A stretch of 64,000 nt of DNA from Escherichia coli (GCF_003018115.1 NZ_CP027457.1); one strand, 5' to 3'; positions 27,001 through 30,000 are shown, counted from the stretch's first letter. Made by a program: the numbers.

Positions 27001-30000
27001 AGACAAAGGCGCAGTACAGGCAGTACTGCGCGCAGAGAGGTGTTATACGGTTTTATTGCGCTTCATGACCATTGCCACAATAAGGCTGAGTAAAATTGCA
27101 CCAATAATCCATATCAACGCACGGCTGCCCTGGGACCACAGGCTGTAGATAAAGCCAACGATCACCAACAACATCACCAACGTACCTACGATAAGAATCG
27201 GCAACGAGGCGTGAATATCATGTCGCAGGCGGATCGCCACCACAAACACCGCCAGATAGCAAATCAAAAAGGTGGCGCTGGCAACGCTGGCGAGTGAGCC
27301 TAAATTTAATGCCGCCGTCATCAGCATAATCAACACCACGACAATGATGTTGCCCCAGGTACTCTGCCGCCACAGGGATTTATTCATTAGCTTCGGCAGT
27401 TCGCGTTCGCTGCCCATGTTGTCCATGATGTTAAACACGGCGAACAGGTTCGCGTTGATGGCTGAAGCCGTCGCCAGTAAAGCGCCGATGACGACGATCA
27501 CATAACCCACATGCCCGAGCAGCGGAGAAGCTGCCTGCGCTACGGCGGTATCGGCATATTTTTCTAACTCTAATGCCGATACATCGCTAAGCAAAACCAG
27601 CGCCAGCGAGATATAAAGCAACGTGGTAACGCCAATCGCCACCAGAAACGCCCGTGGCATAATGACCTGCGGATCTTTCACTTTATCCGCCGCGTTCGCC
27701 ATCATGCCAAAGCCCGCATAGGCAAGGAAGGTTATCCCGATACAGGAGAAGAACGCACCGGAGCTGGGGGGCGCAGAGACGGAAATATGCGCCGGTTGCA
27801 GCGACCAGACACCGGCAATAATCAGCAATAACAGGATCATCATTTTAATGCCGACGAGGATCACTTCCAGCCGCCCTACCGCATGGTTGCTTAAGGAGTT
27901 GAAAAGCGTCATCACCGCAATGATCCCCAACGCGTAGAGCAAAATAAGGTGCTCCTCCTGGCTGCCTTCATGCAAAAACTGCACGGCATAAGCGCCAAAA
28001 GCACGGGCAACCATGGCGATGCTCACCGCCAGCGTCAACAGGTACAGCAACGAGAGCGCCAGCGAAAAGACGCCGTTGCCTAATCCGCGACGAAAAAAGT
28101 CGATAATACCGCCATTGCTGGGATAGCTCGCCCCCAGGCGCGCATAGGCATAACCGGAAAACATCGCCACAATACCGCCAAAAGCAAAGGCGACCCAGGT
28201 CGAGGCTTCCATTAGCAACGCAGCCTGCCCCAGCAGCGCGAAGATCCCCGCCCCCACCATTGCCCCAATACCGATGGAAACGACATTCCATAGACCGAGA
28301 GGTTTGTTACCGTTATTACCTTCCGTGTTCATCATGATCAGCCCTTAAACACGTTATAGCCGAGTTGCTTAGCGACCGATGTCACCATTTTTTGACCGCG
28401 AACACTGTTGCCTTCTTCGTCCAGCGGTGGTGAGAACGCGGCAATTCCCATCACGCCAGGGACGACCGCCAGAATACCGCCACCTACACCGCTTTTGCCC
28501 GGTAAACCAACACGATACGCCCAGTCACCGGAGCGACCATACAGCCCTTCCATCATCATTTCGGCCAGAATGTACGGCACGTTGTCGGCCTGAAGAACGC
28601 GTTTATGCGTCAACGGATTCACACCACCCGCCGCCAGCGTCGCGCCAAGCGTTGCCAGTTCAACAGTATTGATGAGCGTGGAGCACTGACGGGTGTACAC
28701 GTCACAGGCTTCCATTGCATCACAATAGAGATATCCGGCGGAGTACAGCAGCCAGGCAATGGCCCGGTTATGGAAGTTGGTTGTTTGTTCCGACTGGTTG
28801 ACTTCGTCAGAGAGCGCTACCTGCTCACCAGCCAGTTGCTGTTGGATATGTAAAATTCGCTGCCAGCGTTGTTCAACATTTTCAGCGTTAATCAGGCTGG
28901 TGGTGGCAATGGCGCCAGCATTTACCAGTGGCGAAAGCGGTTTGCCGCCATGCAACTCTAAGGCGATAACTGAGTTAAAGGGCAATCCGGTCGGGTCAGC
29001 GCCAATTTTGTCCTGTACCGCCTGCGGGCCGACATCCTCTAACGCAAGGGCTAACGTACAGACTTTCGAGATGGATTCCAGCGCAAAGCGGTAATCACTG
29101 TCACCCGCACTATAGACCTTGCCATCGCAGGTCACGATAGCCACTGCCGCCAGTTGACCAGGCACATTCGCCAGAAAGGGAATGTAGTCGGCATTTTGAC
29201 CGCCGTTAAGTGAGTGAAATTGGGTGTAAGCCTGATCCACTGCCTGCTGTAATTTGTTTGCATCTAACATCTTTTGTTAACTCCTTTTTATAGATGCGGG
29301 AGGTAATTCCTCACCCCGGTGCCGATTTTGAGGCATCCTGATTTAACTTAGCACCCGCAACTTAACTACAGGAAAACAAAGAGATAAATGTCTAATCCTG
29401 ATGCAAATTGAGCCAATTTTTTAATCTTTACGGACTTTTACTCGCCTGGTTTATTAATTTCTTGACCTTCCCCTTGCTGGAAGGTTTAACCTTTATCACA
29501 GCCAGTCAAAACTGTCTTAAAGGAGTGTTTTATGTCACAAACTATCGACCTGACCCTGGACGGCCTGTCCTGCGGTCACTGCGTTAAACGCGTGAAAGAA
29601 AGTCTCGAACAGCGCCCGGATGTGGAACAAGCGGATGTGTCTATCACTGAAGCGCACGTTACCGGGACTGCCAGTGCAGAACAGCTGATCGAAACCATCA
29701 AACAAGCGGGTTATGACGCATCTGTAAGCCACCCAAAGGCTAAACCGCTGGCGGAGTCATCAATCCCGTCGGAAGCACTGACAGCGGTTTCTGAGGCGCT
29801 TCCGGCAGCGACCGCCGATGACGATGACAGCCAGCAGTTGCTGCTGAGCGGCATGAGCTGCGCCAGCTGTGTCACCCGCGTACAAAATGCGCTGCAAAGC
29901 GTACCGGGCGTCACTCAGGCACGGGTAAACCTGGCGGAGCGTACTGCGCTGGTGATGGGCAGTGCCTCCCCACAAGATTTAGTGCAGGCGGTGGAAAAAG

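Follow-up and report, generated by a model that had tools for sequence, protein, structure and literature searches.

We examined a stretch of 64,000 nucleotides from Escherichia coli (NZ_CP027457.1, assembly GCF_003018115.1; referred to here as the window, with positions counted from its first nucleotide), and focused on the copA gene and on a site within it at which a programmed −1 ribosomal frameshift had been proposed to yield a small copper chaperone, CopA(Z). The zero-frame open reading frame of copA lies at 29532-32036 on the plus strand, starts with ATG and encodes a Cu(I)-exporting P1B-type ATPase of 834 amino acids. The protein scored 1748 bits on the NCBIfam equivalog NF007952 (copper-exporting P-type ATPase CopA), the cutoff of which is 1316. 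Its Pfam domains are two HMA domains at the N-terminus followed by E1-E2_ATPase and Hydrolase (HAD), and the CPC and DKTGT motifs of P1B-1 Cu(I)-exporting ATPases are both present in the translation, the latter within 'FDKTGTLT'.

Reading the sequence, we found the slippery heptamer C_CCA_AAG at 29732-29738 (plus strand), in X_XXY_YYZ register. Codon 67 of copA is CAC (29730-29732), codon 68 is CCA for Pro (29733-29735) and codon 69 is AAG for Lys (29736-29738), and the heptamer thus begins at the third base of codon 67. From 29732, the −1 frame reads CCC AAA GGC TAA (29732-29743), with the stop codon TAA at 29741-29743; translation one base back ends in …K P P K G followed by the stop. The coding region of CopA(Z) is therefore join(29532..29738, 29738..29743) on the plus strand, 212 nucleotides, with frame 0 used for codons 1-69 and frame −1 for the final GGC TAA. 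The predicted product has 70 residues and a mass of 7481 Da, and its C-terminus is …SHPKG; residue 70 is Gly in the −1 frame and Ala in the zero frame. The product corresponds to metal-binding domain 1 (MBD1), a ferredoxin-like HMA domain with its CxxC motif at Cys14-Gly-His-Cys17. Pfam assigns the domain to residues 8-62 (29553-29717) at 51.7 bits, well above the cutoff of 24.8 (E=1.2e-13). The initial annotation had placed the heptamer at codons 67-69, just after the first metal-binding domain and with an immediate stop in the −1 frame, and all three statements proved correct. It did not mention the pseudoknot downstream of the heptamer, described below, which is also part of the cassette.

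The locus was compared with that of strain K-12. The region was matched in 5422 of 5426 complete E. coli genomes, and window positions 27015-64000 are colinear with the reverse complement of MG1655 513896-476907. In a 561-nucleotide alignment of the window with MG1655, differences are confined to three upstream positions and six positions in codons 25-44 of MBD1. From codon 45 (column 232) to the end of the alignment (column 561), 222 nucleotides past the heptamer, the two are identical base for base. On the MG1655 chromosome (NC_000913.3), RefSeq gives copA (b0484) a second, two-piece coding sequence at 511168-511379, the product of which is the 'soluble Cu(+) chaperone' YP_009518752.1. Its length, 212 nucleotides, is that of window positions 29532-29743. 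In F9792, the closest strain, PGAP annotates full-length CopA alone and omits the two-piece coding sequence. The K-12 copA/CopA(Z) system and that of the window thus have the same gene, heptamer, −1 stop and 70-residue product, and the cassette is without any difference. The K-12 locus lacks a ~25.8-kb island carried by the window strain, and the differences between the strains lie outside the element.

In K-12, the frameshift product of copA has 70 residues (PMC5009743). The literature regards frameshifting at this site as efficient and as established by experiment; it is supported by a fall in ribosome-profiling density after the −1 stop and has been confirmed independently (PMC9548414, Loughran 2022; also PMC7558416 and PMC10861913). 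The slippery sequence, the pseudoknot and the nascent chain have been described as stimulators (PMC7558416), and single-molecule work has addressed the pseudoknot, including variants of S1 and S2 (PMC6182138). CopA(Z) protects cells under excess copper (PMC6771820), and its role as a Cu(I) chaperone is taken from the literature (PMC6771820, PMC7558416). The proposed correspondence with the reported frameshift, which gives a product of ~70 residues and ~7.5 kDa, is upheld by the identity to MG1655, the RefSeq coding sequence and these studies. We conclude, with a probability of about 95%, that the site in the window is the published programmed −1 frameshift of E. coli copA that makes CopA(Z), a case already known and annotated.

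In order to examine how the site is maintained, 5' regions of copA were collected from three sources: a genome scan with full-length CopA, in which Citrobacter, Enterobacter and Photorhabdus were usable; a metagenome scan anchored on an MBD1 motif and not on the slip site; and truncated gene calls from a protein search combined with contig look-up, which supplied Proteus, two Erwinia, Pantoea and relatives. In the divergent loci obtained from truncated gene calls, assembly errors are possible in the downstream part of copA, and the 5' region analysed here is unaffected. CCCAAAG was present at gene nucleotide 201 in all 21 distinct Enterobacteriaceae sequences. In the divergent Enterobacterales homologues, whose N-terminal identity is 48-71%, either CCCAAAG or CCCAAAA was found in register in 11 of 11 cases (10 plus Photorhabdus). 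In every homologue from these two sets, TAA or TGA occurs exactly three −1 codons in. The zero-frame codon 70 is always NCT (GCT, CCT, ACT or TCT), while the amino acid that it specifies varies among Ala, Pro, Thr and Ser. An invariant T at the third base of a codon whose amino acid varies is direct evidence that selection maintains the −1 stop.

Among the matches listed in the genome scan, the majority of distant CopA loci lack an in-frame heptamer after an HMA domain. A few distant loci (for example L008, L031, L041 and L066), most of them A-rich, do have an in-frame heptamer with a −1 stop within five codons, and these were taken as chance occurrences. In one human-gut metagenome contig with 1.6x coverage (L125, ~1046-1063), GCTAACC replaces GCTAAACC right after the heptamer. 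This change disrupts the reading frame of the remainder of copA, and a sequencing error in the low-coverage assembly is its most likely origin.

Constraint extends well beyond the heptamer. Among 17 Enterobacteriaceae sequences, synonymous pairwise diversity was 0.30-0.44 in MBD1 versus 0.05-0.08 in codons 65-89. The block of suppressed synonymous variation, which marks the extent of the RNA-level element, covers codons 66-92 (29727-29807, plus strand). Mean synonymous diversity in this block was 0.055 versus 0.331 outside, a six-fold drop (17 sequences, Mann-Whitney p=2.6e-9), and the block is the lowest-scoring 27-codon window within the first 200 codons of copA. Amino-acid divergence in the same codons was above that elsewhere (0.152 vs 0.110). 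High amino-acid divergence together with low synonymous diversity indicates that the RNA, rather than the linker peptide, is under constraint. Within E. coli, the 80-nucleotide element at 29727-29806 was identical in 5344 of 5422 genomes (98.6%), compared with 1825 of 5417 (33.7%) for a control segment of 80 nucleotides in MBD1.

Inspection of the downstream sequence together with the alignment pointed to an H-type pseudoknot, the exact pairings of which are inferred. All of its parts lie on the plus strand. The spacer between heptamer and stem 1 (29739-29744) measures 6 nucleotides to the CCGCTG core, or 5 if 29744 pairs with 29788, and has the same length in Photorhabdus as in E. coli. The 5' arm of stem 1, CCGCTG (CCGCUG in RNA, 29745-29750), would pair with CAGCGG at 29782-29787. 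In E. coli the two arms can be extended to 29742 and 29790, respectively, giving a stem of up to 9 base pairs. Stem 2 would be formed by GUCGGAAGC at 29768-29776 and GCUUCCGGC at 29798-29806, and the loops would be 17, 5 and 7 nucleotides long. As isolated hairpins, stems 1 and 2 have energies of −12.1 and −14.2 kcal/mol, and stem 2 was also recovered in the nested minimum free energy (MFE) fold of the 72 nucleotides downstream of the heptamer. The 5' arm of stem 1 codes for a conserved Pro-Leu, and translation of the stem arms accounts for the residues P-L … E-A-L-T/A-A that are conserved in the linker. The region thus combines an in-register X_XXY_YYZ heptamer, purifying selection at synonymous sites and an RNA structure at 5-6 nucleotides, within the 5-9 nucleotides typical of programmed −1 frameshift sites.

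The pairing was tested on a 17-sequence alignment with 16 base pairs and 500 shuffles. Paired alignment cells amounted to 86%, versus 21-48% when the partners were slid by 1-3 columns. Compensatory changes on both sides were found in 9 of the 16 pairs, compared with 3.5±1.3 in the shuffles (one of 500 reached 9), and the covariation score was 0.182 against 0.111 (reached in none of 500). Individual examples in stem 1 are CCGTTG/CAACGG in Pantoea (CCGUUG/CAACGG in RNA), CCACT/AGTGG in L213 (CCACU/AGUGG) and ACGCTG/CAGCGT in Erwinia rhapontici (ACGCUG/CAGCGU). In stem 2, we observed CCGGAAT/ATTCCGG in L208 (CCGGAAU/AUUCCGG), CCGGAAC/GTTCCGG in Photorhabdus (CCGGAAC/GUUCCGG) and CAACTGGAA/TTCCAGTTG in Proteus (CAACUGGAA/UUCCAGUUG).

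A strongly conserved structured RNA at 29745-29806 would also be compatible with a different origin of the short MBD1 protein. It could come mainly from a truncated copA transcript that ends early or is processed close to the structured RNA and is translated up to a stop or up to its own 3' end, with the conserved RNA mainly governing formation of this transcript and frameshifting being minor. Such a route is suggested by the title of a 2017 paper by Drees et al. (Mol Microbiol 106:635). On the other hand, a terminator scan of 29250-30300 identified no intrinsic-terminator-like site on the plus strand, and a truncated transcript leaves unaccounted for both the invariant in-register heptamer and the −1 stop, reflected in the invariant third-base T of codon 70 across Enterobacterales. 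In addition, the literature credits the product to frameshifting, with a drop in ribosome density at the −1 stop (PMC9548414). We regard a truncated transcript as a quite improbable main source of the protein; the two routes may coexist. Transcriptional slippage was also considered and rejected. The runs of three C and three A residues are too short for slippage of RNA polymerase, and conservation tied to one register implicates the ribosome.

We then asked how readily such a site would arise by chance. In a survey of the 29 non-overlapping open reading frames of at least 150 codons in the window, 22 in-frame X_XXY_YYZ heptamers occurred in ~19,000 codons. Only two of the 22 are of the X_XXA_AAG type, the copA site at 29732 and the site of dnaX at 47527-47533 on the minus strand, and in both genes a −1 stop follows three codons from the heptamer start. 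These two are also the genes of E. coli in which −1 frameshifting is known (PMC10861913). On the basis of conservation and covariation, the copA site is far beyond chance.

Several observations weigh against our interpretation. The bare heptamer is not enriched, with 4 copies in the 64-kb window against 7.9 expected. The nested MFE fold of the 72 downstream nucleotides was not significantly more stable than shuffled sequences (z=−1.23), a value which is uninformative because the method cannot model pseudoknots. A permissive E-value scan of 29300-30300 against Rfam gave no frameshift-element family and only chance-level matches. Three of the aligned sequences, L209, L212 and L214, align poorly in stem 2; they add noise and supply part of the covariation signal. 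Furthermore, loop 1 (29751-29767, codons ~74-81) is nearly invariant at synonymous sites in Enterobacteriaceae, even though it lies outside both stems. This conservation is not explained by the two stems, and may reflect tertiary contacts or some alternative pairing. Finally, the experiments were performed in K-12, and frameshifting efficiency is not computable from sequence; efficient frameshifting and chaperone function are presumed for the window strain from the literature on the identical K-12 sequence.

Some of these points would suit an explanation in which heptamer and stop are coincidental, the RNA block serves mRNA stability, pairing with a small RNA or a pause for membrane targeting, and no functional short protein is made. 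The window indeed shows no enrichment of the heptamer, targeting could in principle be aided by a pause at the pseudoknot, and the conservation of loop 1 is left without an explanation. Against this stand the register of CCCAAA[G/A] and the −1 stop at its fixed three-codon offset, kept across lineages with 48-71% N-terminal identity, as well as the position of the cassette, which closes an HMA domain regardless of changes in domain number. Moreover, the cassette is identical to that of K-12, for which the product is both demonstrated and annotated. Given conservation throughout the order and identity to the allele used in the experiments, coincidence can be excluded in practice.

Frameshifting at copA would accordingly be expected, as in K-12, to proceed in the following manner. 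On the CueR-controlled copA mRNA, a ribosome arriving at C_CCA_AAG would hold tRNA-Pro in its P site and tRNA-Lys in its A site. The pseudoknot 5-6 nucleotides downstream would resist unwinding, with a contribution of the nascent CopA chain according to the literature, and a fraction of the ribosomes would move back by one base in a classical tandem slippage, re-pairing from CCA-AAG to CCC-AAA. These ribosomes would decode GGC as Gly70, terminate at TAA (29741-29743) and release the 70-residue CopA(Z), a free MBD1 that, from the function reported in the literature, would act as an HMA/CopZ-like Cu(I) chaperone. The remaining, non-slipping ribosomes would produce the full 834-residue Cu(I) pump. 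A single mRNA would yield the soluble MBD1 chaperone and the full-length pump in a fixed ratio.

The relationship of CopA(Z) to known chaperones was then considered. Its sequence matches in the PDB included CopZ/Atx1-type chaperones (CopZ 6ff2, 1cpz) and metal-binding domains of ATPases. None of its scores on the curated NCBIfam models for CopZ reached the respective cutoff, the best being 60.7 vs 85 bits for NF047957 and 39.7 vs 95 bits for NF033794. In view of these scores, CopA(Z) is the released MBD1 of CopA, CopZ-like in fold and role, and not a CopZ orthologue. The proteins encoded by stand-alone copZ genes, such as those of Enterococcus hirae and the copZA operon of Bacillus subtilis, resemble CopA(Z) in having an HMA fold of ~70 residues with a CxxC motif. 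CopA(Z) differs from them in that it has no gene of its own, being encoded inside copA and released by recoding.

Among other systems, dnaX in the same window provides the closest comparison. Its tau/gamma −1 frameshift site, GCA AAA AAG AGT GA, is located at 47522-47535 on the minus strand. Like copA, dnaX is a chromosomal case of programmed −1 frameshifting at an X_XXA_AAG heptamer with tRNA-Lys in the A site, and early termination in the −1 frame yields a C-terminally truncated functional protein. The dnaX heptamer is A_AAA_AAG and is accompanied by an upstream internal Shine-Dalgarno sequence and a downstream stem-loop. In contrast, copA combines C_CCA_AAG with a pseudoknot, and no Shine-Dalgarno-like motif was seen in our reading of the sequence upstream of its heptamer. 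A −1 frameshift has also been claimed for human ATP7B, an orthologous P1B ATPase, and this claim does not hold: synonymous-site conservation, strong in the copA element, is absent from ATP7B, and frameshifting there does not exceed background (PMC9548414, Loughran 2022).

The position of the cassette was also compared among relatives. It always follows an HMA domain, and this domain is not always the first. In Photorhabdus (L005, heptamer at 1911-1917) the cassette comes after MBD2 of three, and in L208 (1008-1014) after the second of three HMA domains. It follows MBD3 of four in Proteus vulgaris (L206, 1209-1215) and MBD1 of three in L209 (813-819). The heptamer of L005, L206 and L208 is CCCAAAA rather than CCCAAAG, and Proteus has an additional overlapping heptamer, T_TTC_CCA. 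We tentatively suggest, at somewhat less than even odds, that the copA frameshift cassette is a conserved feature of Enterobacterales that keeps its place behind an HMA domain as the number of domains changes around it. If this is the case, Photorhabdus and L208 would release a soluble protein with two HMA domains (~140 residues), Proteus vulgaris a protein with three (~206 residues), and L209 a single HMA domain from a three-domain pump. A comparative description of such multi-domain variants was not found in the open literature searched, a comparison that did not include the primary copA paper. This primary report is Meydan et al. 2017 (Mol Cell 65:207), in which the claim on ATP7B was also made; its abstract reportedly mentions similar elements in copA of other bacteria and no more.

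Upstream of copA, we read a promoter with a CueR operator at 29462-29492 (plus strand), with TTGACC at 29462-29467 as the −35 element and TAACCT at 29487-29492 as the inferred −10 element. Within the 19-bp spacer lies a perfect 7-bp dyad, ACCTTCC-N7-GGAAGGT, with arms at 29465-29471 and 29479-29485. From general knowledge of PcopA, we take this dyad to be the site of CueR, a MerR-type regulator acting on a 19-bp spacer. The promoter was not called by a sigma-70 promoter scan that allowed only spacers of 16-18 nucleotides, owing to the 19-bp length of its spacer. A Shine-Dalgarno sequence, AAGGAG, is present at 29520-29525 (plus strand), 6 nucleotides 5' of the ATG. The 5' untranslated region also contains, at 29490-29523, an imperfect inverted repeat, CCTTTATCACAG / CTGTCTTAAAGG, of 12 nucleotides and 83% complementarity. 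Its 3' arm overlaps the Shine-Dalgarno sequence, and the repeat may form a hairpin that modulates translation. In L206 and L208-L212 (Proteus, Pantoea, Erwinia and relatives), a MerR-family, cueR-like gene is situated directly upstream of copA in divergent orientation. In E. coli, glsA-ybaT lies between copA and cueR, and in the window strain the adhesin island as well.

This island, the ~25.8-kb segment between cueR and ybaT (~1225-27015), is absent from MG1655; its genes (1126-26705) specify a giant adhesin along with a type I secretion system. On the minus strand, it comprises genes for an HlyD adaptor (1126-2301), an ABC permease/ATPase (2298-4460) and a TolC-family outer-membrane protein (25350-26705). 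Between the last two, on the same strand, lies an open reading frame of 6925 codons (4464-25241), which the annotation of strain F9792 names 'BapA-related adhesin SiiEA'. The window also contains a copy of cueR (722-1225) with only 93.7% identity to that of K-12. Two further differences from K-12 were noted. A stretch of ~137 bp just 3' of copA (32194-32330) gave two alignments to K-12, and in the adk-hemH intergenic region a 54-bp segment (43034-43088) replaces ~158 bp of MG1655. Both probably represent variation in repetitive extragenic elements.

For the window, the value of these results is one of annotation: copA should carry a second, two-piece coding sequence for the 70-residue CopA(Z), and the cassette of this strain makes no open question newly testable. 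The gene has been grouped with dnaX and prfB as a well-characterised case of recoding in E. coli (PMC10861913), and is one of only three chromosomal genes of this organism of which this can be said. Across Enterobacterales, strong selection at the RNA level on the copA cassette is evident from sequence alone, in the suppression of synonymous variation, in the −1 stop that has been kept and in the covariation of the pseudoknot.

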